Below are positions 12,708-63,805 of a DNA stretch of 64,000 nucleotides, piece after piece. A program made the position numbers and the translations under genes. The notes beneath the pieces are model-generated. The model had not been told where the DNA came from and searched no databases. It saw nothing but the letters and a program-made list of their open reading frames with translations. Position 1 is the stretch's first letter. The number at the start of each line of letters is the position of its first letter. Origin of the DNA: Proteromonas lacertae (lineage: Eukaryota). The stretch lies in contig NGBS01001187.1 in NCBI GenBank assembly GCA_002245135.1, positions 1 through 64,000 on the forward strand. The letters are read 5' to 3'.

Positions 12708-14649
12708 ATGAAGTTTTATTTGTCATTGTTGAGTATAATAAATGTTATAATGTAATAGTAATATTCTTTTTATGTAGTGTGAGCTGTGGTCGAAGTAATT
12801 TGAGGTGTATGTAGTTCTATTTTTTATTTTTTAGATCTTGGAGAAGAGAGAGAAATGGCACAACCAGATGATGATTCCACAACTGCAGTTGAAAATACCA
12901 TAATTACATTTAAGGCAACAGCTGGTACATTTTACATAAAAGGAGAAGTAGCGGTTAGTTTTATATCTGAATCATCATTTAAGTTATATGAAGTCGGAAC
13001 AACAGGTACTAATACGGTTGAATATACTTTAATACCAAAAATTGTTTGTGATGGAACAAAGGATGGTGGTAAAACATGTGAAGGTACAACAACAGATGAT
13101 TGTGCTAAAATTAAATTTTCAATCAAAGAGAGTACTTTAACTGTTATTCAAAATTTATCTGGATATGAAGGTAATAGTCTTAAAGAATTAACTGCAGATA
13201 ATGAAATTAAAGAAGCAAATGATGCATTGAAAACTTATTCCAATGCAAGTAAATGTGTAAAAAAGCCTTCTGATGATAATTTTAATTTACCAGAAAATAC
13301 TCAAATCACATTTAAAATTGAAAATAAAGGTGTAGTTCATGTATTAAATACTGCAGCAGTAAGAATATCAGGAAGTGAATATACATATTATACTGTTACA
13401 AGAACAGAAGATAAATCTACAGGAACAAAATTAACATTTACACCTAAAAGCGAATGTTTAGGAAAATCTAATCCACAATCTTATTATACATGTCCATCAA
13501 CATCACCACAAACATGTGACAATATAAACGATGTAAAAGTGAAATATACATCAGATGAATCAATGACAATTGAATCACCTAGTGAAGGAATATACTGATT
13601 TAAAGAAAGATACATCACAAACAAATATTGAATTATATAAAAATAATGCTAATGCTAAATGTAATGTAAAACCTGTTCCAGATGCAGTTAATTTAAAGTA
13701 TGTGGAAGGTGAATATACAGTAATAATAACTAAAACTGCAGCATTGAAATACAAAACAAATGATAATATGGAATATACATATTATTCTACTGTTAAAAAA
13801 GTTGATGGTAGTTTAGGTGGTTCAAAATATACATTAACAGGTAATTATAAATGTGCAAATAAACAATCAACAACATGTACTTCAGCTGAAAAAGCAACAA
13901 CAGATTGTGATAAAATAGAATTAGAAGTTAATTATTATAAAGATAGTAAAGATGATAAAGAATATATAAAGATAGTAAAACTATCTGAAATATCTGCATC
14001 TCTTGCTGAAGAAGCTGATCTTACATTAGTAACACAAAGAGCAAATGACAAAGCAATTTGTAAAGGTGGAGATAGTGGAGGTGATAAAACTGATAATTCA
14101 TATCCAGAACCAATTGAAGATAATAAAGTGATAAAAAGAATTAAAGACGAGATAAATTATATACTAGCAAAAGATAAATATTATATTGTAAAAGAAAATA
14201 ATTATCAAATATCCTTTCCATTAACAAGAACTACTGAAGGTAATAATAATTTCACCACATTTCAAGGTTCTGATGATGAAACAAAACTAGTTAAATCTCA
14301 AAGTGGATATTATCTACAAGGATTTACAACTGAGATAAAGAATCTACATGAATGTATAGATACAGATAAGCCTTTTGTTTCAATTTCCTGGATGAATAAT
14401 AATTGTCATAATAAAACTGGAATAGTTGAGAAATTGATAGAAACAGTAGGTGATAATAGTAATGGAATTAATCTTAATTTGACTTTGAAGAATGGAACAA
14501 TTGAAGTTCATCACTACTTGCCAGATAATAAATTAGGAGTTTTTTTTGGTAATATAACAACTGAATTTACTCCTTCTGAGTTAGAAGATATTGGTTGGAG
14601 TGTAATACCTACCATATTATTCTCAGTAGTTATTTTATTATTATTATAG
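12708..14649 (+). CDS. Secreted, C-terminally anchored surface protein with three ~120-aa 4-Cys repeats (one frameshift near 13595)
   Basis: Spliced N-terminus MKFYLSLLIIFFLCSVSCGRSNLRYLGEEREMAQP is a signal peptide. Thr/Lys-rich repeats each carry 4 Cys. The protein ends EDIGWSVIPTILFSVVILLLL* (GPI- or TM-type tail). Confidence 0.75.
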
Positions 14650-19611: not shown

Positions 19612-21204
19612 ATGTCAACTATGTTCCTTCAGACAATTTCCAATGAAGAAGCGTTGGGAAGAATGGCTGTATTCTTATATAAAGATTTATTCTTATTTAG
19701 CATCTTAATATTGGAAATGTCACAAATAAAATAGATGATATAGAAGGTACACATCCAGAAATAAAAGAATATCGTTATACAAATAGACCAGATTTATATT
19801 ACACTGATGATATTGAAGGATCTCATCCAAGACAATTACATCATCCAATAAATGCAGAATCATATTTCTTAAGAACTGATGATATACCATACGCTCAATC
19901 AAAATGTCACAGTTTCACCACTAATAGACATATTAATCCAATAGATCCACATTATAAATTACCAAGTTGTAAAATCGCACCAGCTCCAGTTCCTAAATTC
20001 ATCAGAGACAATATACAAGTCGATGATATTGAAGGAACCAAACCAGGCAAACTCTATCCATATGAAAAGAGAGATATAATCAGTTGTGATGATATAGTAG
20101 GTACAAAACCCGGTTGGAAGCCAAGATACAAGCAATGGCTTGATCCTCCAAGAGATATATTGAATGTAAAAGATATAACAGGTTCAGAATGGAATACATC
20201 CCGACATGTCAATCCATTAGAGCCAAAATACAAAGTAGGAGATTTAGAAATAGCTGATGAACCTAGAGATGTCCATCCTCGTCCATTGCCTAAAGAAATC
20301 CAACCTGATTTAAGATATACAACTCACGACATTGATGGTTCAATAACTGACTGGAAACCAATGTATGATTTAGGAGGAATTACACTATCAAAACGTAAAG
20401 ATTTCAGAGAAACCAATTATGCACAAGATATCAAAGGAGCACAACATGATACGGTTCATTGGAAGTTGAGAACAAACCGTGTTGTTGATCCATTAGATCC
20501 TCAATATATTGGTTTAGATGGTGTTCCAATGGATGATGCTTTATATCGATGTCCAACTCCACCAAATCCTACATCAATACCTCCAGTGAGATCAACAGAA
20601 GCTGTGATTGCTGAAAAGGAATTTGAATTGAGGAATTTGTCACAAGAAATTAGAGAGATGAGACAAACTTTGAATAATACAATGAGTAACACTGGTTCTA
20701 ATGTAATTGGTAAACCACCAAGAGATCCAAGTATTCAACCTGTAACAATCAATAATAATAATGATAATAATAAAAATAATACCGTTTCATCTTTGAATAA
20801 TTCAATGAATAATAGTAACAGAAGTTCAAGAAATCAATCGAATAAAAGTTCAGGAAGAAGATCACAGACTGTTTCACCTAATATGAGTAGAAATTCTTCA
20901 CAAAATATAACACCTCAACAATTAACGCCTTTGAGATTATCAAATCCTGTAAGTCCTATTAATATTGAGAAAACTATGTCTTTGAGTCAAACTGTTTCGA
21001 ATATTGTGAGTGGTGATACTTCTAAACCTATTGTTATTTCACATAGATCGAATACTTCAAGTGTATGATTTATTATATTGTTTTATATTATTTAAATAGA
21101 AGAGACATACTCCTAAATGTGATATTGAATCTGTGAGAAGTTTACCAGAAACACCAATGTCACAAAAGAATTTGGGAAGTGGAACTAGAGATTTTCAAAT
21201 GTAA
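19612..21204 (+). CDS. Uncharacterised repeat protein with DDIEG-like and RxxNPLxPxY motifs, 3 exons
   Basis: Spliced ORF with IDDIEGTHP, TDDIEGSHP, VDDIEGTKP, CDDIVGTKP, HDIDGS and QDIKGA, plus RHINPIDPHY, RHVNPLEPKY and RVVDPLDPQY. A coiled coil and a terminal DIESVRSLP follow. Confidence 0.75.
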
Positions 21205-21320: not shown

Positions 21321-23929
21321 ATGGTTTTATTGAATTTAATTGATACAACGAACAATCTGAGAGGGTTGAGTGATGATTCAGGTATATATTATTTATTAGT
21401 TGTGATTTGTTGAATGATTTTATTTCTCTTCTTCTTAATTTTTTATTTTCTTTCTATTTATTTAAATCTATTATATTCATAGATGGATTTCCTCATGTGG
21501 TTTTGGAATATATTTTCTATTTCATTTTCATAAGCATCTCTTTTATTGGCTATTTTCTTTTCAAATGGCAATATAGAGCTGCTCTTAACCTCTGGTCCTC
21601 TTTAAACAATGAATTAAATGTAATGGCGCTATCATCAAAACCACTTTACGAATTAGCTTCAATTAAAGATGAAACACTAGAACAATTCTTCTCGTTTATA
21701 TCTCCTAATTCATCTCAATTAATAGATCTAACACCTACCGAGATGAACAGACCATTTCGGTATTGGATTAGCGATTGGCAAACTATACAGCTTGTTACAA
21801 AGGATATGTTAGGTCAAGGTATAGTGGTATGTTCGTGTAAAGGATTTTATATTAAAATTCAACAGATGGAAATCACAGAAAACCTATATCTTTGTAAATT
21901 TATGAAATGTTTTCATTCAACAGAGTTTAATCCAACAACATTGTCAGATTATCCATCCTTAAAATATGAAATACCATTTACAGATAATTACATCACAATC
22001 AACAAAGATAGTGGTCAAATCATTCAAATTAGTTCAGAAATAGTCAAGCAGCTTGAGTTACCAACAAACACCAGTACAGGTGTATCTTCTGTCATATCAA
22101 AACCGTTTGAAAACTACCTGTTAGGTGAATGTTTAAAAGATAATTTCATGAAAACTATCACTTATTTATATTCCTTAAACCATAATTATATTCGATCTTA
22201 TCTATTATTAACCAATAATTCAACCACTAATTTACGTAGAATACCATATATTGCTGATATTCGAATATATGATGAATCTTTAATGATTCATTTACATGAT
22301 TTAAGAATAGAATATGAAATGAATATAGAAAATCCATTAATCATTATCGATAATAATGACACTATATTATATGCAAATGATAAATGGAAAATATACAATA
22401 TAAACTCTAGTTTATTACTATCTCGTGAATTTAAGAGTTTTATTAAAGCTGAATTCCGTAATTTGTATAATCTATCAGGATTAATCGGAACATCAGGACA
22501 AATATTGAAATTACAATTTGATGAAGATGTTGTTTTTGATGCAAGTATTCATGCTCATTACTACGGATTTGAACAGAAAGATGAATGTGTTTTAACTAAT
22601 AGCAATAATAATAACAATAACAGTGAAATAAATGAAGTTAATAATATGAATGGAAATAATAATAATAATAATCATGCTGTAATAAATAATCGATTAAATA
22701 CTGAAATTAGGCAAAACTCTTTGGTTTTATTGGAAATATTACGTGTTGATACAATGAATACTGAATCTAGTTTTGAAGGAGCTTCTTTACTTCATGATAT
22801 TAGGAATAAAGTAAATAGTATTGCAATAGATGTTGATATAAGCAAACAAACATTAAAGCAACTAGAAAATGTAGAGAAAATGAGAGAAAATAATGTATTA
22901 GTTAGTTTAAAAGACACAATGCAAGAAATTGGTAGAAAGAATGCTGATTTAAGAGAGGATTTATCTCATCGATTAGATATAATTAAAAGTGCCAATAGTT
23001 CATCAGAATCTACATTTGTATCAGTCAATTTCTATAGAGAAATCTTTAAAATTGCTGCTAAGAATTGCCAAAGTGAAATGAATAATAAATGTGTAGAATT
23101 GAGTGAAAAATGTGATTCTATTTTAATGAATTCAAATACTTATGTTTTATGTGATAAATGTTATTTAAAAAGAGCATTTGAGAATTTATTGTTTAATGCT
23201 ATTAAATTTACACCTTATCACGGAACTATTACATTTTCAGCGTTATTAGATGAATCTAATGATAGTTATTATACCATAATTGTAAGAGTTAAAGATACTG
23301 GAACAGAACCAATTGATGAATCTCAATTTGAATCTGTTTTTGGTATTTTTACACAGACAAAGAATAGAAAGGGAGGTTATGGAATTGGATTATCGTTTGT
23401 GAGATTAGCTGCAGCAAGACATCATGGTAGTGTATGTGTTGAAAGTAGTAGTAAAAGTGGAACTTGTATAAAAATGACTTTAACTTTGAAAAAATCAAAT
23501 AAACCTGAAGATGTGAATTTGAATGAGAAATTTGTGGGTAAAAATGCATTAATTATTGATGATGCTCAAAGTAATATATTACTAATGAATAAAGTATTGG
23601 ATAAATTAAAGATAGTGAGTGAAGGAGCAAATGATTCAAAATCAGCATTAATGTTGATTAAACAGAAACATTATGATATTATATTTGTAGATAAAGTATA
23701 TATATACAATTATATAGTAATTATTATTTAGAATCTTGGAAATGAAGATGGTTGTGATGTAATTCGATCAATTGAAGATAAAAACCATTCAATTATCATA
23801 GGTAGAAGTGGAGATGAACAAGCAGCTATTTCATTCATGAATGCTGGCGCTGATTGTGTAATGTTGACAACTGAATCAAAAGATAGTTTAATTAGAAAAT
23901 TAAATCCATTAGTCAACAAAATTAATTAA
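21321..23929 (+). CDS. Membrane-anchored hybrid sensor histidine kinase with receiver domain
   Basis: H-box LLHDIRNKV, N-box ENLLFNAIKFT, G1 VKDTGT, F FGIFTQ, G2 GGYGIGLSFV. Receiver ALIIDDAQSN...YDIIFVDKNLGNEDG...AGADCVM. One N-terminal TM after splicing intron 21382-21482. Confidence 0.88.
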
Positions 23930-38736: not shown

Positions 38737-39222
38737 ATGTTTTGCTTAAAATCTTTCATAGATGATGTTATACCGTCAATATTACCATCTGATGCAATAG
38801 TATTTTAGTTGAATTATTTTTGTAGATAAAAGAGAGAGTAGAAAAGAGTGTTAGTGAAGTAGGTTTAGTTGTAGAACATAAAAATGATATAAAGATGATG
38901 AAAATTGTAGATGTATCAGTGATAAAAGAAGAGAAGATGTTATATTATTTAGAAATGGTCACGTTTGCTGCAAATAGTAGTTTGTCCTTTTTCCTTCCTT
39001 CCAAAGTATTTCAAATTAATAATTATGGTGGATGTATGACAATAACAAGATATTATTATTTGAATGATTTAGAAGAGATACTTCCGAATAAATGCTTTAC
39101 AAGTGATGATATTGGAAATATAATATGTTTATTATATGATATATTGATGATATTGAGTGAAAATGAAATAGTGGTAAATAATCTGAAGAGTAGTAACGTA
39201 ATATATGAAGAGAACCATGTAA
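38737..39222 (+). pseudogene. 5' fragment of a pseudokinase(-LRR) gene, cut in subdomain VIb/VII
   Basis: Same first-intron position and sequence style as the 44037 gene (YYLNDLEEI vs [22 protein letters not shown] vs GNLKSSNVVYVEN). It then switches abruptly to Hsp70 sequence. Confidence 0.8.
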
Positions 39223-40057
39223 AAGCATTAATCCAAATGAAGCTGTAGCTTATGGTGCAACAGTACAAGCTGCTATTTTAACTGGTGCTGATAAAGGTGG
39301 AAAATTAGATGAATTGTTATTATTGGATGTAACTCCATTAAGTTTAGGTTTAGAAACAGCTGGTGGTGTAATGACTGTATTGATTAAGAGAAATACCACA
39401 ATTCCAGTTAAGAAAACTCAAGTATTTAGTACTTACAGTGATAATCAACCAGGTGTATTGATTCAAGTATTTGAAGGTGAAAGATCAATGACAAGAGATA
39501 ATAACTTATTAGGTAAGTTCCAGTTAGATGGAATTCCACCAATGCCAAGAGGTGTTCCACAAATTGAAGTAACTTATGATATTGATGCAAATGGTATTTT
39601 GAATGTAAGTGCTGTAGAAAAGAGTACTGGTAAAGCTAATAAGATTACCATTACAAATGATAAAGGTCGTCTTACACCTGAAGAAATTGAAAGAATGGTT
39701 GCTGAAGCTGAGAAATTCAAAGCTGAAGATGATAGAAATAAAGAACGTGTAGAATCCAAGAATCAATTAGAAAACTATGCTTTCAGTGTAAAGAACAGTG
39801 TTCGTGAAGAAGCTGTAGCTAATAAATTAGGTGAAAATGATAAGAAAGCTGTAGAAGATGCTGCTGAAGCTGCAATTAGTTGGTTAGACAGTCATCCAAA
39901 TGCTGAGAAAGAAGAATATGAAGAACAGTTGAAGATATTAGAAAATAAAGTAATGCCAATAATGAGTAAGTTAGGTGGTGGTGCAGGAGGTATGCCAGCT
40001 GGTGCTGCTCCAAGTGGTGGAAGTGCTCAAGGTCCACATATTGAAGAAGTTGATTAA
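39212..40057 (+). pseudogene. HSP70: 3' half of cytosolic Hsp70 (most of the ATPase domain missing)
   Basis: [25 protein letters not shown]...[18 protein letters not shown]...GPHIEEVD*. In-frame TGA at 39206-39208 upstream, and no N-terminal half nearby. Confidence 0.88.
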
Positions 40058-44036: not shown

Positions 44037-47000
44037 ATGAATTGCATTGATGAAATATTGTCACAATATGAAGTATTTAAGTTTATTTAATAATTTAGAT
44101 TAATAAAAGATCCGAAAAGAGTAGTTGTGAAGTAGATTTGGTTGTGAAAGATGAAGATACAATGAAAACAGTGAAAATCCTAAATATTACTGAAATAGAT
44201 GAACAGAGAGTATTAAAGTTTAGTGAAAATAACTCTTTACTCTTAGATTGTTGTTCAAATTTGGTATATCCAACCCAAATGCAGTTCTTCGGGTGTAATA
44301 CAATAGTAGTAGAGAGAAAATACTACGAGAATGATTTGGAAGAGATAATTCAAAGTCAAACCTTATCAAGTGATAGTATTAATAGTATAATATGTGGTTT
44401 GTGTAATATCCTGATAATAATGAATGAAAATGATGTAGTTGTTGGTAATCTGAAGAGCAGCAATGTAGTGTATGTGGAGAATCGTGATATAAAATTATGT
44501 GATATTGGTTTAAATACTTTGAGAAAAGAAGAAGAAATGACAATATATGATATATGCTTTAAAAGCCCTGAAGAATTGATTGGATTAGAATGTAACGAGA
44601 GAAGTGTAATTTGGTCAGTTGGATGTATATTATATGAAATAATCAACAAGAAATTACCATTTAATGAAGATAATAATATGAATAAAACAAAAGAGAATAT
44701 TGTGAGATGTAAAAACAGTTTAGATGAAAAATGTGATGATTTAATGAAAGAAATGATAAAAAGAATGTTGAAAGTGAAGAATGAAGATAGATTGAATTTA
44801 ATAGAGTTGAAGAAAGAGATGATAAAAATGAGTGAAATAAAGAGAGATGGAAATAATTATTTAATGATATATAAAGAAAGAAAAGAGATGTTAAATAATA
44901 ATGATTTTTTAATTATAGTTCTACCAATATTATTTCCATCAAAATATTATCTTGGAAGTCATAAATGGGAAGTTATTCGAGATGATTTAATAGAATTATA
45001 CACTTATGGAGGTAATGAAAGAATACTAGCAATATTATTGATGATAAAGTTATACAAAAAAGATGATAATGCTAAGGATATGCTTTTATTTAGAATTACT
45101 CATAAATGTAAAAAAGGAAAAAAAATTAATTTAGATAAACAGGTATTTAACATGTATCTTGATGATTATGATGAAGAAACAATTAGAATTAATTCAGATT
45201 GTTTTTGTATGTGTGAAAAAGGAATGAATTATTTGTTCAAAGTGTTAAAATACCTCGATGTAACAAAAATTGGTTTTGGTATAATTTTAAGTAATTGTTA
45301 TTCATTTAGATAATATTGAAATTCCACTGCAACTTCAATCGTTATTCGGATTGTGTTTTACACAATTAAGAAATCCAGAAGTATTAGATTTAATAGGATA
45401 TAATCTTACATATCGCTTTATTGAATCATTTGTTATTTCAATTCCATTTATGAAACTGAGATGTTTAGATATTGAATGTATTTGTTAAGTCTTTTTAATT
45501 AATTTACTCATAAATAGGTAATCCAATTGGTCCAAAAGGATTCAAATTATTACTTCCATATCTTCATTTGTTGTTAAATGGATATAATAAATTGAATCTT
45601 TGTATGATGAATTTAAATGATGAATCAATGATATTATTATCATCAGAATTACATAAATATCCAAATCTTGAGAAAATAGATATAACAGAAAACAAAAACA
45701 TTCATTCAAAAGGATTAAAAGCTTTATTCTCTAAATTACCTATTTCAAAGATAGAATTTGATTTTAATAGAAGTAAAGAATTGCTGCTAGACAAAGATAT
45801 TCCAGAATTAATCAAATATACCAAAGACTGTAGAAATGATTTTTATATGCCAAAATTAATTAGATTAATCACATATTATTATGTTTTAGATTTAAATGAT
45901 TCTGATATTGATGATGATATTTTCAAGTCCTTTATTAAATTAAGATCAAACGAATGTGGAGATATAAGAATATTAGATTTGAGTAGTATTATTCGATATT
46001 TTTCTATTATTTAGATAATAAATTAACATATAAAAGTATTGAAATACTAGTTAATAGTTTATCTTCATTTTCAAATCTTAAGGAACTTCAATTATATGGA
46101 AATGAGATAGGAGATGAAGGAATCAAAATACTATCTCCACATTTACATTTACTAAAAGATCATAATGAAAAAATGAATTGTTCAAGTATAATTCTTATTG
46201 TAATATGTAATAGATATGGGATTATCATCAATTGGATTAAAGTACTTATTAGATAGTTTAAAGAATATTCAAGGAAAGATAGAATTATTTGATATAAGTT
46301 ATAATTGTATTGATGCAGATGGAGTAGAATATTTGATGAATTATATGAAAGATAATAATATTGAGAAAATAATCATTCATGGTATCTATTTGCTTTTTAT
46401 TTTGTTTGTTTCAAATAGATAATCCAATTGGTAATAATGGATTTAAATTATTATTGAATAATTTGGATATTATAGAAGACAAAAATGATGAAATTAATAT
46501 GAATAATATCTTAATAGATGATAAAAGCGCAGTATTATTACCCAATAAGATATATAAAGTAAAAGGATATATTACTATCAACCTAAATGGAAATGATATT
46601 AGAATGAAAGGATTGAAAGCACTAGAAGAAAAATATTCTGTTTATGATAGAATTATAATTGAATCTATTCCAGCATATTATCTATTTGTTCAAATAAATA
46701 ATTCATTATGGACAAATGAAGAATTTGACTGCTATTTAAGTTATTGTTATAAACAGACGAAAAGGAGAGTATATAGAAATTATGATTTTTCAAGTATACA
46801 ATCCAATATATATAATATAATAGATTTAAATGTGACTGATTCTCATATTTTATTCATTAAACAGCTTAATTATAAAAAACTTGATTTATCAAACAACAGA
46901 ATTAGTAATAAAGGATTAAAAGAATTAATAGATTCTATACCAAAATATTCAGATAGATGTATATCTATATCAATTAATAATAATCCAATTGGAGATGAAG

Positions 47001-49955: not shown

Positions 49956-51448
49956 ATAAAACAAAGAACAAAAATAAAATAATGTTTAAGATTTTATGGC
50001 TTTGTATTTTGTAATACATTATTATTTAACCAATAATCTCCTTTCTATTTAATAGAACAATAAAAAATATACTTCAGTTATATCTAATGCAGGACTCTGT
50101 GTTGATCCAGTGTTCAATATCATATGGACTGGCAATTCATAAGTAATTGTATGAACTTTCCATCCATCTTCACTTTCTTTCAATTCTTCACCAGGCCAAG
50201 CAGTTGTAGTTTCATTATTCCATATATGTCTATTAAATACATAATATAATAATTATTATTATACATATGTGTATATTCTTTACAATAAACATGAATTTCA
50301 TTTGATTCTTCACTTTCAGGTTTAACACTTTCTTCTACTTCCTCTTCTTTCTTCTTCAGCTACTATTCTTTCTTCTACTGCTCTTTTCTCTTCTTCTTGT
50401 CTCTTGGCTTCTTCAGCCTTTCGGGCTTGTTCTTCAGCTAATCTTCTAGCTTCTTCTTCAGCTTGTTTTTGTCTTTCTTCTTCTTTACGTTTTTCTTCAG
50501 CTTTTCTCTTATCTTCTACTAATTGTTTATCTTTATCATCATCTGGCTTTTTCTTCTCTTCTTTTGTTTTAATACTACTTTCTGTTTTTTTAATTTCTGT
50601 TTTTTTAGTTTCTTTTACTACAACATGAATAAAATATAAAACATACCTTTATTTTCATTTTTGTTATTAATTTTCTCTTTAGAATCATGCATTTCATGAG
50701 TACGATTTGTATTTTCATCTTTACTATGTCTTTTCAAAAAAAATAGTAATGCAGCTGCTGTTGCTATTGTTGCTGCTCCAGCAAGAATAATAAAAGAACT
50801 TTTGGCTAAATATTAGATATAATATTGATATACATGGCATTTAGAGGTAAAATAGAAAATGAGAATTTTCAAAAAATTATATTCGTTTCATAATTTGAAT
50901 ATTTAAAATAAAATCAAATAAAACAAAGAACAAAAATAAAATAATGTTTAAGATTTTATGGCTTTGTATTTTGTAATACATTATTATTTAACCAATAATC
51001 TCCTTTCTATTTAATAGAACAATAAAAAATATACTTCAGTTATATCTAATGCAGGACTCTGTGTTGATCCAGTGTTCAATATCATATGGACTGGCAATTC
51101 ATAAGTAATTGTATGAACTTTCCATCCATCTTCACTTTCTTTCAATTCTTCACCAGGCCAAGCAGTTGTAGTTTCATTATTCCATATATGTCTATTAAAT
51201 ACATAATATAATAATTATTATTATACATATGTGTATATTCTTTACAATAAACATGAATTTCATTTGATTCTTCACTTTCAGGTTTAACACTTTCTTCTAC
51301 TTCCTCTTTCTTTTCTTCTTCAGCTGCTATTCTTTCTTCTTCTGCTCTTTTCTCTTCTTCTTGTCTCTTGGCTTCTTCAGCCTTTCGGGCTTGTTCTTCA
51401 GCTAATCTTCTAGCTTCTTCTTCAGCTTGTTTTTGTCTTTCTTCTTCT
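49956..51448. repeat. ~530-nt near-identical direct repeat (49956-50484 and 50918-51448)
   Basis: Offset 962 nt (964 after the indel). Covers the 3' UTR, two introns, the CBM exons and the end of the stalk. Confidence 0.92.
49994..50840 (-). CDS. Signal-anchored protein with short E/K stalk and C-terminal CBM26-like starch-binding module (copy 1; 2-nt indel near 50345)
   Basis: Spliced MPSKSSFIILAGAATIATAAALLFFLKRHSK, then an E/K/R helix, then EIHVYCKEYTHIHIWNNETTTAWPGEELKESEDGWKVHTITYELPVHMILNTGSTQSPALDITEKGDYWL. Confidence 0.75.
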
Positions 51449-52428
51449 TCAGCTGTTTTTCGTTTTTCTTCTTCTTCAGTAGCTTTTCTCTTTTCTTCTT
51501 CTTCAGCTTGTTTTCGTTTCTTTCTTCTTCTTCAGTCTTTTCTTTTTCTTCTTCTTCAGCTTGTTTTTGTCTTTCTTCTTCTTCAGCTAGCTTTTCGTTT
51601 TTCTTCTTCTTCAGTAGCTTTTCTTTTTCTTCTTCTTTTTTCTTTTCTTCTTCTTCAGCTTTTCGTTTTTCTTCTTCTTTCTCTTTTCTTCTTCTTCAGC
51701 TTTTTTGTCTTTTCTTCTTCAGTAGCTTTTCGTTTTTCTTCTTCTTCAGTAGCTTTTCTCTTTTCTTCTTCTTCAGCTTGTTTTCGTTTCTCTTCTTCCT
51801 CTGCAGCTTTTCGTTTTTCTTCTTCCTTTCTCTTTTCTTCTTCTTCAGTAGCTTTTCGTTTTTCTTCTTCTTCAGTAGCTTTTCTCTTTTCTTCTTCTTC
51901 AGCTTGTTTTCGTTTCTCTTCTTCCTCTGCAGCTTTTCGTTTTTCTTCTTCCTTTCTCTTTTCTTCTTCTTCAGCTTGTTTTTGTCTTTCTTCTTCTTCA
52001 GCTGCTTTTCGTTTTTCTTCTTTTTCTTCTTTATTTTCTTTTTCTTTTTCTTTCCTTTCTACATCATCAATTACTTCTTTCACATCTTGCTTTTTAGAGT
52101 CTTCTTTTTTTTGTTTTTCTTCTTTCTCAAATAACATTTTAGCTTCTTTTGCTTTTCTAGCTTCTTCCAGCTTTTTATTTTCTTCTGCTTTACGTTTTTC
52201 TTCTACTGCTTTCTTCGTCATTTCACTTATTTTTGCTTTAAATTGAGCTCTTCTTTTTTTTTCTTTTTAATAATAGACAAATAGATATATACTAGCATTA
52301 TTTTCATAATCATCCTGTTTTCTCAGAAAATATATGAAGGCAGCTGATGTCACTATTGCAGCTGCACCAGCAAGTAAAATTGTTACTTTATTTGCTATAA
52401 ATAAATAAATAAGAATTGTACAAGGCAT
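50956..52428 (-). CDS. Signal-anchored protein with long EEEEKRK stalk and C-terminal CBM26-like module (copy 2; indels in repeat tract)
   Basis: Spliced MPSNKVTILLAGAAAIVTSAAFIYFLRKQ, roughly 300 aa of charged helix, then the same CBM26-like domain. TAA at 50956-50958. Confidence 0.78.
51440..52030 (-). repeat. Coding minisatellite: 27-nt units (KRK[A/Q][A/T]EEEE) with a 126-nt higher-order repeat
   Basis: The distinctive CTGCAGC marker recurs at 51801 and 51927. Confidence 0.85.
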
Positions 52429-52649
52429 GTGAGACTAGATATTTAAAAACTAAAAATCTGTTTCAAAAATATGTCTGTTTCTTTATTCAAAAGTATAATG
52501 AAAAATGAATGTATGAAGATAAAACATATTGTATTAGAGGTATAATTGTTGTTAATTTCATTTAATGATCAATTATTAATAACTTCTGTAATTTTATTTT
52601 TAAAAATGTAACAGCTAGTTTATTTTGACAGTTTATTTTCTTCATAACA

Positions 52650-53684
52650 ATGCTAAGAAAGAATTTCAATGAGTATAACTCTTCTCAGGCAGTTCCAATG
52701 AGAGAAACAAAAATAAGGAGGACAATATTGGGTGATATTTCAAACGCATATAGAGTTGGAGTAACAAACATAAAAAAGGAGCCAGCCATGAATGTAGGGA
52801 TGTATAATGCAGGCATGATGGAAGGAGTGGATATTAAATACGCAAATAACACTTTTTATACACCAGAATATGCATCTTCGATTATGAAGCATTATTATGA
52901 TGTTGAAAAGAATTTTCAAGTTGATTCAAATTATATGAATATGCAACCTGAAATTAGTTCAAAAATGAGAGGTGTATTAATAGATTGGTTGGTTGATGTT
53001 CATTATAAATTCAAATTACAACCACAAACATTCTATTTGATGGTTAATTATATTGATCGGTACTTAGAACATAAAAGAATACCTAAATGCAAGTTACAGT
53101 TAGTAGGAGTTGTAGCTTTATTTATTGCATCAAAATATGAAGAAATATATTTCCCAACAATAAAAGATTTATGTTATATAACAGCAAATACATACACAAG
53201 AGAAGATATATTACGTATGGAAGTAGATATGATAGGTGCTTTTCACTTTAATTTAACTGTTCCAACTGTTTATAATTTTTTATGTAGATTTATTCAAGTA
53301 TTGGATAGAGGAGATGAATATAATTCAGTGTGTTACTTTTTAGCTGAAAGAACTCAACAAGAGTACAATTTATTACCATTTCTACCTTCACATATTGCTG
53401 CTTGTTGTATTTTATTAGCTAATAGGTATTTGAATTACAAAGAAGAGTGGGATAGTGTTTTACAACATTATACGCATTATACACAAAAAGAATTGGAAAA
53501 ATGTAGTGAACTAATAGAGTATGATATTATTCACACCTCTACAAACCTTCCTGTATATTTTATATTTCGATTTCTTTTATAGGCTGTCTGGAGGAAGTAT
53601 ACTAAATCGGTTAGGAATAAAGCATCACATATAGTATATAAATACTTGCGTTTAGCACCATTAATTCCTCCGACTGAGAGTTAA
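52650..53684 (+). CDS. Mitotic (B-type) cyclin
   Basis: Destruction box RTILGDISN; cyclin box MRGVLIDWLVDVHYKFKL...LQLVGVVALFIASKYEEIY; last exon AVWRKY. Confidence 0.92.
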
Positions 53685-60565: not shown

Positions 60566-61513
60566 ATGTTTTTTTGTTTTATTTGTGCAATCTTATTTTC
60601 AATCGTGATTCTTATATCTGCAACATATTTGTTATCAGGTGTTAAAACGTCTAATCTTAGAAAAAATAATGAAGATAAGCTATACAGTAAAGATAGTGAA
60701 TCAAGTGATAGAGATATCATGAGTAAATATAAATATGGTTATGGATCTGTACATTCAGTATTATGGACATGTCCAATAAACAGACCAGAAATAGATTTGT
60801 TTCATAAAGCTCAGTATAAAGAAGATGAATGGATATTATCATACTATAGAAACAATAGTCTACCGTTATATAATGGCATATTTATAGAGATAGGTGCTTA
60901 TAACGGAGTTCAATATTCAACTACCTATCTATTAGAACAGACATATGGTTGGAGGGGTTTATTAATTGAAGGTTCTTCTATGTATTACCAAGGTCTAATA
61001 AACTCTGGAAGAAATCGCTCTTACAAAATTAACAAAGTAATATGTAATTCATCTCAAGAAGTTATATATAACGAATTAGCTCTAGGATTGAGTGGATTGA
61101 AAAGACATTCATCAAATGCAAGGAATAAATATATAAAGTCACTCAATTCGATAGAAATTAGTGTTAATTGTTCTACAATGAAGAGAATCATCTCAGACTA
61201 TCATTTAACACATATTGATGTATTTTCTTTAGATGTAGAGGGAGCTGAAGCTGAGTTACTTGAAACTTTTGATTGGAAAGTAATTGTAAGATTGTGGTTA
61301 ATAGAAACAAATTATGAGTTAGGAATAGATGAAGCAATAAAAGATGAGAATGTTAGGAAAATAATGAGAAGTCACGGTTATAAATTGATTTATAAGCCTA
61401 TACCACCTGGTGTGAATGAAATATGGGTAAATCCTAATTATGATGAATTGGTTAAGCCTTTACTAGAAAAAGAAAAGAAATATTATAACAATGATGGAAA
61501 AAATTGTGAATAA
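60566..61513 (+). CDS. Type II membrane FkbM-family (Methyltransf_21) SAM methyltransferase
   Basis: N-terminal TM; GIFIEIGAYNG, YGWRGLLIEG, HIDVFSLDVEGAEAELL, WLIE. Intron-free. Confidence 0.88.
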   Translation: MFFCFICAILFSIVILISATYLLSGVKTSNLRKNNEDKLYSKDSESSDRDIMSKYKYGYGSVHSVLWTCPINRPEIDLFHKAQYKEDEWILSYYRNNSLPLYNGIFIEIGAYNGVQYSTTYLLEQTYGWRGLLIEGSSMYYQGLINSGRNRSYKINKVICNSSQEVIYNELALGLSGLKRHSSNARNKYIKSLNSIEISVNCSTMKRIISDYHLTHIDVFSLDVEGAEAELLETFDWKVIVRLWLIETNYELGIDEAIKDENVRKIMRSHGYKLIYKPIPPGVNEIWVNPNYDELVKPLLEKEKKYYNNDGKNCE

Positions 61514-61724: not shown

Positions 61725-63805
61725 CTAAACTCTATCTTTTTTATCTATTTCTATTCCACAATGTTTATTCAAATACATAGGCAATTCTCTATGCAAATAA
61801 CTAACAGTCAAAACTCCAGAAACAGCAATTGTAGATGTTCTAGTATGCAAAATTAAACAAGTACTATTTCAACAACATATAAATATAATATATATATACT
61901 TTTCTGATAATTTATTAACATCTACTTGAATCTCTTCATTTTGACCAATTGATATATAAATTTGTTTCAATTGAAAATTGTAAGGATTTGAAGTAATTAT
62001 AACTAGATGTGGTTTTAATGATAAGATAGTATTCATTCTTACATTCTCAGTTGGTTCTGGAGGTGTGTAAATTACATGTACATGACCGTATAATACATTA
62101 TTCTCAATAATTGGAATTAAAAAATTTCCTTCCTTATCCCACACATATACAAATTTTGACATGAAATTTAAATCATATCGTAAAGGCAATATAAGGAATA
62201 TATTATGTGGACGAGGAAATAAAACTACTAAATATTGTAATAATTTTAATATATTTTCATCATATTCATTATTATAATTTCCACTTTCCTGTTTCTTAAA
62301 TACCAATCCAGATATATCAACTACTATTGAATAGTAAGGAGGTAATGGTATATTATAATAAGGAACATCTAATTTATAGAGACGAGGTAATGATTGGTCA
62401 TATTCTTGTCTTGGATATGGATTAATTGGAACATTTTTACCAAAATAATCATTTTCAGGAATATCAATAAAAGTACCATTCTCTAACCATGAGAAATACT
62501 GTGATACTTCAAATGGATAAGGTCCTTTATATTTACTCACAAATTTCCATTTCTCTACTAAACCTGGTCTACCATAAAATTGCTCTTTGAATTTCATTAC
62601 TGATTCTTCAGTGTAAGAATAATGTGTAAAAACTAAACCATTTAATTCAGTCTCAAAGTGTCTAAAACATTTATATCCAAATATATCCATCCATTTATCT
62701 GTACCACTGATTAAATGGTTAATATGCGGAGGTGCATGTAAAGACCAAATATCGCCTTTATCATATCTCCAAGCTCTAATCCATTCATATATATTTTGAT
62801 GAGTTGGTAAATCAGGTGTAATTGTAACATGATAGGGTGTAATGAAATAGTGACAGTGGAAATACATACATCTCTTATTATTATTAGGTTTGTTGAACAG
62901 TTCGTAGATTGTTTCCAGCTGTTCTGTTGTCCAGATTTCATCAACATCTATTTCTATCATTACACATGGAAATTCGATTTGGTGTAACACTTTCAACATT
63001 GTTATCTTATCTTTCCACATCTGTCCATAAAGTGTTCTATGTACAAATACTTCTAATGGATTTTCTTCTTTTAATTTGTTTATATAAATACTTGTACCAT
63101 CATTTGAAATACCTTGATACATTATTGAATCATCAAATTTGTCGGTGGAATATGGTTTCTTACTGTTTGCTCTACCTGCTGCTATTCCTTCAATAATATG
63201 CCATTGGAAATAAAAGTAAGCTTCTTTGAAGATTTTTAAATGATAGGAAATAAACGGCCAACCATTTGCTACTATTGTGTATATTACTACTGGCATGTAT
63301 TGAGATTCAGGATCACTATTTAATATTGGATAAGAATTAATATATACGCATCTGGAGTGTATGTTAGTGAAATACCTAAAGTTGTCATACCCTTTTCTGC
63401 AGTAACTGATCCTTTCTTATAAGGAAATGAATAGGAAAATTGATGTACATCATTGAGTGGAACTGACAATTGTGCAATTGTAGAATGGTTTAGCTGGTCT
63501 TTTACTCTGCATAAAAATGTGTATTTTGTCAACATAGAACCTACAACCAAGTACAAACCCTATTATATGTAATAATTAGAAAGAAAAATAAATACTTTAC
63601 TAATAAGACTATCGAAGTAACTACCGACATCTTGACATGCTAGATCCATTACACCTTGAGTGATAATATTTATTGGGCTTTGTGTAATTTCAGTCTTAAC
63701 ATTTGCAATAAACATTGATCCAAATCCAGTGATGTTGGTTTGAATATTGAAAAAAATAAAATATATTCCACAAAGTATTAGGAATATCACCTGCCCACTA
63801 ATCAT
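61725..63805 (-). CDS. Type II membrane GT-A-fold glycosyltransferase-like protein
   Basis: N-terminal TM (VIFLILCGIYFIFF); YTIVANGWPFISYH, WHIIEG, SNDGT, DxD motif IEIDVDEIW, and VFTHYSY...FKEQFYG. Confidence 0.75.

Follow-up and report, generated by a model that had tools for sequence, protein, structure and literature searches.

We analyzed the first 64,000 nucleotides (nt) of contig NGBS01001187.1 from Proteromonas lacertae (assembly GCA_002245135.1; the whole stretch is hereafter the window), and identified on its minus strand a pair of genes, each predicted to encode an N-terminal signal-anchor, a charged rod and a C-terminal domain of the carbohydrate-binding family CBM26. The long gene (50956-52428) starts with an ATG at 52428, ends with a stop codon at 50958-50956 and has 5 predicted exons (52428-52422, 52394-52293, 52262-51227, 51191-51035 and 51006-50956) separated by predicted introns at 52421-52395, 52292-52263, 51226-51192 and 51034-51007; its 1350 coding nt would yield ~450 amino acids (aa), given a continuous frame. 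The short gene (49994-50840; ATG at 50840, stop codon at 49996-49994) likewise has 5 predicted exons (50840-50834, 50805-50647, 50617-50265, 50229-50073 and 50044-49994) and predicted introns at 50833-50806, 50646-50618, 50264-50230 and 50072-50045, with 724 coding nt, out of frame as assembled, that correspond to ~241 aa. Both genes lie where the original prediction, an earlier model-made note on this DNA, had placed them.

The CBM26 domain spans 50959-51261 of the minus strand in the long gene, where it is split over three exons with the core exon at 51190-51035, and 49997-50299 of the minus strand in the short gene, where its sequence is identical. The 52-aa core exon alone scores 31.2 bits against the Pfam profile PF16738 (CBM26; cut-off 28.1, E 2.5e-7), well clear of chance, and a HMMER search against 1.84 billion representatives returned 49 hits, with CBM26 present in 31 of the 32 that were scanned; the family assignment made in the original prediction therefore holds. 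In the Atlas search, CBM26 clusters appeared at 0.96-0.97, with a recognition value lower than the level of most known families. A profile built from the exon, two relatives and 30 further stretches matched the R. bromii Amy and Sas6, E. rectale Amy13K and B. halodurans CBM26 chains in the PDB, whereas the single sequence yielded one weak match (E 0.55). The structural model of the core exon reached a predicted local distance difference test (pLDDT) score of 84.4, compared with 58 for single-sequence folding, and its top fold matches were the CBM26 chains 7uwu and 6b15 (Z 5.0, root-mean-square deviation 1.9, 52 residues aligned). Two structural results temper this assignment: the Z score, which refers to the core exon only, is modest and tied with CBM48, CBM20 and CBM25 alpha-glucan modules, and a Foldseek search with the core-exon model gave no match under E 0.001.

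For the tiny introns that had been postulated in both genes, eight predictions were obtained, four per gene, all of which are of the form GTA...AG, 27-35 nt long, with a GC content of 9-21%; intron 1 follows base 7 in the long and the short gene alike. Against a bacterial-only profile of 30 bacterial-type rows, the spliced domain scored 53.9 bits, the unspliced frame 47.8 bits and the core exon 45.9 bits, and the higher score of the spliced domain suggests, indirectly, that the predicted splicing occurs. Rows were called "bacterial-type" on the strength of signal-peptide-like termini, dockerins and secretion tails, and 2 of the 20 clusters concerned were named (Ruminococcus and Cytophagales). 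Among the single-domain hits the best was P0149, a frame of 54 residues that is 53% identical to the core exon; P0195, from the same cluster, has 56 residues and 57% identity. P0149 scores 28.9 bits on CBM26, just above the cut-off of 28.1; both frames keep the two tryptophans of the core exon, and both extend past the exon end with Val-Tyr, just as happens when the core exon is translated onward into its GTA-TAT intron. This indicates, at the level of sequence comparison, an intron position common to the relatives and the core exon, and because a relative of 53-57% identity ends at the same intron position, the module would be an established eukaryotic gene. No longer relatives were present among 3 word-index candidates, and P0149 alone among 19 candidates emerged from a profile search near the exon length, so that a full-length spliced relative with anchor, rod and domain was not found in these word-index and profile searches. 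DNA scans produced two weak metagenome loci, one weak genome locus and one weak plasmid hit.

The aromatic residues expected to stack on the ligand are retained. In the available portion of the report on Sas6 (10.1101/2022.11.20.514607), Trp63 and Tyr55 are the stacking residues, Tyr53 and Gln103 are among those that form hydrogen bonds, and the hydrogen-bond network is described as variable among characterized CBM26 domains. The profile places Trp3 and Trp11 of the core exon at the positions of the stacking pair, Tyr55 and Trp63, and Gln44 occupies a column that is Gln in 29 of the 30 bacterial-type rows; this column presumably corresponds to Sas6 Gln103, the printed alignment ending before that residue. 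Two substitutions count against an alpha-glucan-binding site: the first platform position is His in the core exon (Tyr in 25 of the 30 bacterial-type rows and His in 1), and the protist-like relatives carry Lys at the Gln44 column. A CBM26 fold that now serves a different ligand or binds a protein partner (e.g., a phosphorylase, a debranching enzyme or a cytoskeletal element), with the rod as a structural spacer, would account for His in place of the hydrogen-bonding Tyr, for Lys in place of Gln and for the long stem that leads to the protist-like rows in a quick tree (0.94 changes per column). We consider such a change of ligand distinctly unlikely, given that none of the three protist-like rows has lost the WPG motif or either stacking tryptophan, that His and Lys at these positions are each seen in a bacterial-type row, and that the hydrogen-bond network is itself variable.

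No catalytic domain was detected in either gene product, Pfam reporting only CBM26 for the core exon, in agreement with the non-catalytic architecture that had been proposed. The lone CBM26 of Sas6 (RbCBM26) binds short maltooligosaccharides, binds amylopectin weakly and does not detectably bind granular starch (available portion of 10.1101/2022.11.20.514607). Because of this last observation, a single CBM26 per chain is, by analogy, probably a weak alpha-glucan binder.

Between the anchor and the domain, each product carries a rod of ~344 residues in the long gene and ~135 residues in the short one, in line with the short and long stalks of the original prediction. The long stalk (51262-52262, minus strand) is an E/K/R-rich rod made of 21-27-nt units arranged in a 126-nt higher-order repeat, with a charge pattern like that of single alpha-helices: E, K and R account for a fraction of 0.69-0.71, the parts scored contain neither Pro nor Gly, and none of 1000 shuffles reached the i+3/i+4 score. 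In the distal part of the short stalk (50300-50617, minus strand), the last ~57 in-frame residues are single-alpha-helix-like; residues 90-146 were matched by 0 of 1000 shuffles, and the pattern is weaker in residues 28-89 (35 of 1000). Three of the four rod segments combine an E+K+R fraction of 0.68-0.71 and an LIVMF fraction of 0.04-0.07 with the lack of Pro and Gly and a salt-bridge score that 0 of 1000 shuffles reached, so that the proposed single-alpha-helix spacer stood up to the charge-patterning analysis and the rods, judged from sequence, agree with the glutamate-arginine/lysine (ER/K) single alpha-helix in composition and charge. At the textbook value of 0.15 nm per helical residue, the long rod would span up to ~50 nm and the patterned part of the short rod ~9 nm. 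Most known examples of ER/K single helices come from cytoplasmic proteins.

Neither gene can be read through as assembled: from its ATG, the long gene reads for 238 aa to a stop at codon 239 and the short gene for 153 aa to a stop at codon 154, in both cases upstream of the domain. Of the 23 repeat units listed for the long gene, 14 keep the frame; the remaining 9 make up the frameshift zone (51505-51720, minus strand), where 5 units have a length not divisible by three, the net shift is zero and stops lie between the shifts. The short gene has 2 bases fewer than the long copy at 50345-50348 (minus strand), in A runs, with 2 substitutions within 35 nt. The frameshifts in both copies are probably consensus (sequencing or assembly) errors, because the indels are single-base, scattered and present only in repeated sequence, and because long frames elsewhere in the window, of 1063 and 1098 codons, are unbroken. 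A 208-nt sequencing-run contig matches 51012-51219 with zero differences, but it reaches no frameshift site and may not be independent of the window.

The two copies share an identical tract of 391 nt (49956-50346, equal to 50918-51308) that takes in the domain, two introns and the 3' flank, and a further identical block of 108 nt (50378-50485, equal to 51342-51449); the original prediction does not mention this identity. Only 60 of the first 87 coding nt agree between the copies, and past the identical tract the 3' flanks are homologous yet diverged. Judging from these patterns, an old tandem duplication followed by recent gene conversion would best account for the identical 3' halves, homogenization during assembly being a possible alternative source of the identity. 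The window holds exactly two copies of the gene and no others. If one or both copies were decaying pseudogenes, or if the identical 3' halves were an artifact of assembly or polishing, there would be a single anchored CBM26 gene and the two lengths would be unreal. The broken frames, an identity that extends through the introns, and a second odd junction in the window, where near 39,230 a kinase fragment is joined to the latter half of Hsp70, all speak for this scenario. It is nonetheless unlikely, as the N-termini (60 of 87 nt) and 3' flanks have diverged in the manner expected after an old duplication with recent conversion, the scattered single-base indels are restricted to repeat or duplicated sequence while frames of more than 1000 codons elsewhere are intact, and the core exon is 53-57% identical in a relative that keeps both tryptophans and the intron position. 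Because of that conservation, a functional family can be argued for even with one dead copy here.

As to the origin of the module, the remaining CBM26 relatives found all look bacterial. The quick tree comprised 93 rows from 45 hit proteins, each contributing at most 2 domains; P0165, P0168 and P0177 were excluded because they matched poorly. Its three protist-like rows grouped together with a Shimodaira-Hasegawa-like approximate likelihood ratio test (SH-aLRT) value of 97, and the long stem of this group lies among rows of bacterial type, those of the amylase P0191 being the closest (joining at 92, unstarred). These sequence relationships make it likely that the module came by transfer from bacteria. 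Of the horizontal acquisition suggested originally, the part that stands is a bacterial-type domain inside an intron-bearing gene, whereas the phylogeny of 93 rows singled out no donor lineage.

The window, with a GC content of 26.8% and the standard genetic code, is gene-dense with eukaryotic genes, including those for a cyclin, a DHHC palmitoyltransferase, a mitochondrial carrier, a kinesin, a histidine kinase with a receiver domain and an FkbM methyltransferase. The cyclin gene lies directly upstream of the gene pair on the opposite strand and the DHHC palmitoyltransferase gene downstream. Bacterial contamination was rejected because of the introns and the eukaryotic neighbors, cyclin and DHHC. 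The GC content of the P. lacertae genome is given as 27.0% (PMC12129017, Table 1), and the available portion of supplementary file 10 of the same source assigns 8 occurrences of the CBM26 entry IPR031965 to P. lacertae and none to Cafeteria or any of eight Blastocystis strains; in the portion of the main text that was available, these counts pass without comment, and neither CBM nor starch is mentioned. The GC content and the counts of CBM26 and FkbM suggest a gut stramenopile of the Proteromonas type as the host. Blastocystis proper was set aside as the host, with the TGTTTGTT motif occurring only 8 times in the window and both CBM26 and FkbM counted 0 times in eight strains.

The placement of the domain relative to the membrane bears on its function. 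Both products begin with 4-5 residues, followed by 21-22 uncharged, Ala-rich residues that end at residue 26 and then by basic residues. The predicted signal-anchor of the long gene (52324-52386, minus strand; residues 6-26) has a Kyte-Doolittle mean of 2.23 and a Wimley-White interface mean of 0.20-0.34 depending on window size; that of the short gene (50735-50800, minus strand; residues 5-26) has values of 2.37 and 0.20-0.31. No second hydrophobic window was present in the scanned parts of either product, and the single anchor with a basic motif described originally was recovered in each protein. In the Atlas search with the anchor exon of the short gene, every score was under 0.8.

The positive-inside rule had been invoked in favor of a cytosolic module. 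Behind the anchor, the short copy has 3 K/R in 5 residues, and the long copy has two basic residues, then acidic residues, then a basic cluster (2 basic and 2 acidic in 5 residues, 7 basic in 15). Across the anchor, the charge difference (C minus N, 15 residues) is +2 in the long copy but 0 in the short one, so that the argument carries for the former and not for the latter; taken together, the charge differences suggest a mild lean toward a cytosolic C-terminus. In addition, a rod so rich in K and R would be easily cut by gut trypsin if exposed, which would count for the cytosolic side.

In the opposite orientation, these would be type II surface proteins that keep the N-terminus inside and, by way of the rod, expose CBM26 to the exterior or to the lumen of a food or endocytic vacuole, where it would capture dietary starch or maltodextrins much as the non-catalytic Sas or Sus binders of gut bacteria do. 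Several observations favor this arrangement over a cytosolic one: the zero charge difference in the short copy, the lysine ahead of the anchor in both N-termini, N-glycosylation sequons in the domain and in the short stalk (one each), the signal-peptide-like termini and secreted or surface-bound look of most sequence relatives, and the solved CBM26 matches being bacterial proteins of starch degradation or starch adherence. The sequons, however, say little on topology, because the one in the domain is present in only 1 of the 2 protist-like relatives and similar loops occur in bacterial-type rows. The basic residues directly behind both anchors also speak against an exposed domain. The long rod could extend beyond a surface coat, and the available portion of PMC12129017 counts 7 GH13 domains in P. 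lacertae versus 1-3 in Blastocystis strains, along with 3 GH13 N-terminal Ig-like domains found in P. lacertae and not in the others; the fungal-type alpha-amylase domain, on the other hand, is not counted for P. lacertae there, and no alpha-glucan enzyme was found among 28 reading frames of the window scanned with Pfam. Moreover, bacterial binders mostly carry tandem repeats, and the lone CBM26 of Sas6 binds amylopectin weakly and granular starch not detectably. Surface capture, the leading alternative, is on balance possible but doubtful.

Our preferred interpretation, to which we assign about an even chance, is that the pair are signal-anchored, non-catalytic proteins whose predicted cytosol-facing CBM26 domain tethers the cell's own glycogen to an internal membrane. 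For this to work, the introns would be spliced out, the frameshifts would be assembly errors, and a module acquired from a bacterium would have gained its introns afterwards. The short N-terminus would cross the membrane while rod and module remain cytosolic, and the weakness of a single CBM26 per chain could be overcome by avidity, many anchors gripping one branched glycogen particle, with the rod length deciding whether such particles are held close to the membrane or farther away. In the available portion of PMC12129017, both P. lacertae and Blastocystis are credited with starch/glycogen synthase, phosphorylase and debranching domains, and glycogen metabolism has been described in Blastocystis and Opalozoa (available portions of PMC5608401 and PMC7965971). 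Glycogen storage by this particular cell is something we infer, and the dependence of the tether on it weighs against our interpretation.

The membrane would most likely be the mitochondrial outer membrane, or else that of the endoplasmic reticulum or a vacuole; the mitochondrial surface is the likeliest site, although we propose it only tentatively. Part of stramenopile glycolysis runs inside mitochondria, which would be a reason to park glycogen there. According to the available portion of PMC4010795, more than 89% of the signal-anchored proteins of mitochondria and chloroplasts have Wimley-White values under 0.4, such anchors need at least 3 basic residues behind them, and acidic residues close behind the anchor block mitochondrial targeting in yeast. 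Both anchors lie at 0.20-0.34 on the interface scale, under 0.4 at each of the four window sizes used. The short copy, with its 3 basic residues in 5, agrees with the basic-residue rule. Two features argue against mitochondrial targeting: on the octanol scale the anchors range over 0.24-0.58 and exceed 0.4 in the 11-residue window (0.55-0.58), and the long copy has acidic residues within five positions of the anchor, the pattern that blocks targeting in yeast.

The role of such a tether would be to position the glycogen store and not to deliver it to autophagy, because the stalks lack an Atg8-interacting motif (AIM)-like sequence and because Atg8, Atg3, Atg5 and Atg9 domain counts are 0 for P. 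lacertae in the available portion of PMC12129017. The motif [WFY]xx[LIV] was absent from the in-frame parts of either stalk, the frameshifted zone being outside the scan; two matches lie elsewhere, one in the anchor of the short copy and the other in the domain. In its full form, this would mean that a gut stramenopile lineage turned a starch-binding module of bacterial amylases into a glycogen-to-mitochondrion tether in which two rod lengths set the distance between store and organelle, a scenario that we regard as speculative.

Several other features of the window were noted. The long gene and the cyclin gene (52629-53582, plus strand) are divergent, with starts ~220 nt apart (52429-52650), and may have a common promoter. 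The cyclin has relatives, P0002 and P0003, that are 89% and 83% identical to it, which suggests that near relatives of this protist, though not the protist itself, have already been sequenced by accident. The stretch 38829-40054 (plus strand) begins as a kinase-like fragment, which shares 41% identity across 131 aa with the kinase at 44102-45310, and continues directly, near 39,210-39,245, as the second half (Pfam positions 353-596) of an Hsp70; it is either a rearranged pseudogene or a mis-join. An FkbM-family methyltransferase with a hydrophobic N-terminus is encoded at 60566-61510 (plus strand); FkbM is counted 70 times in P. lacertae versus 0 in eight Blastocystis strains (available portion of PMC12129017). 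A large frame at 21380-23728 (plus strand) codes for a histidine-kinase ATPase domain together with the beginning of a receiver domain, as in a hybrid two-component sensor. A 454-aa frame at 19704-21065 (plus strand), with repeated DIEG-type motifs and without a Pfam match, presumably resembles repeat proteins of flagellated protists. Long Thr/Lys/Tyr-rich frames without a Pfam match at 12807-14646 (plus strand) and 61875-63416 (minus strand) are possibly lineage-specific surface proteins.

The domain itself has already been counted in P. lacertae by automated annotation, whereas its anchored, rod-mounted layout was not found described in the literature searched. A described eukaryotic CBM26 protein was likewise not found in the accessible literature on CBM26, starch-binding domains and their evolution, subscription journals being mostly outside the search; no papers on CBM26 with Blastocystis were found in the literature searched, and the available part of a rumen eukaryote metatranscriptome table lists 0 CBM26 contigs. 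Since CBM26 has been characterized in bacterial starch-degrading proteins, a eukaryotic, intron-bearing and anchored form would show a transferred module rebuilt with host parts. The significance is tempered by both copies being broken as assembled and by carbohydrate gene transfer into gut protists being common.

With known CBM26 proteins, namely RbCBM26 of R. bromii Sas6 (7uwu/7uww), E. rectale Amy13K (6b15/6b3p) and the Bacillus halodurans G6-amylase (2c3g/2c3h), the present domain shares a score above the Pfam cut-off, the stacking aromatics, the WPG motif and, presumably, the Gln; the beta-sandwich model of its core exon has its top matches among these chains, at the modest Z score tied with other alpha-glucan modules. 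Unlike them, it belongs to a eukaryotic gene with two introns inside the module, follows an N-terminal anchor and a charged rod, has His at the first platform position, and stands as a lone module without a catalytic domain, dockerin or secretion tail. The gut-bacterial binders R. bromii Sas6 and Sas20 and Bacteroides SusE/SusF, the latter also in the fold list, are similarly tethered, non-catalytic alpha-glucan modules, but they are multi-module proteins with a dockerin anchor, or, in SusE/SusF, a lipid anchor, whereas here one module sits on a eukaryotic signal-anchor. If the domain faces outward, the pair would be a protist version of these starch-adherence proteins in a lineage that competes for dietary starch. 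As with the horizontally acquired carbohydrate-active enzymes of gut stramenopiles, such as GH154 and others in tortoise Blastocystis (available portion of PMC12129017), a bacterial carbohydrate gene would have been domesticated in a gut protist; those, however, are plant-polysaccharide enzymes, and here a bare binding module is fused to a host-type anchor and rod.

The closest parallel in layout is mammalian STBD1, which has a hydrophobic N-terminus, an Atg8-interacting motif and a C-terminal CBM20 (available portion of PMC12913940). Both have an N-terminal membrane anchor, a spacer and a single C-terminal non-catalytic alpha-glucan module, and to this extent the analogy to STBD1 drawn in the original prediction fits; its extension to glycophagy probably does not, neither stalk having an Atg8-interacting motif. 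The Proteromonas proteins further differ in having CBM26 instead of CBM20, a patterned charged rod as the spacer and two lengths. Because the module is CBM26 and not CBM20, the likeness would be convergent, and cytosol-facing proteins of this kind would be a counterpart of STBD1 and a testable handle on how a protist positions glycogen at membranes. Should the mitochondrial tether prove true, the STBD1 layout would have arisen a second time, independently, in the service of positioning and fuel supply rather than autophagy.

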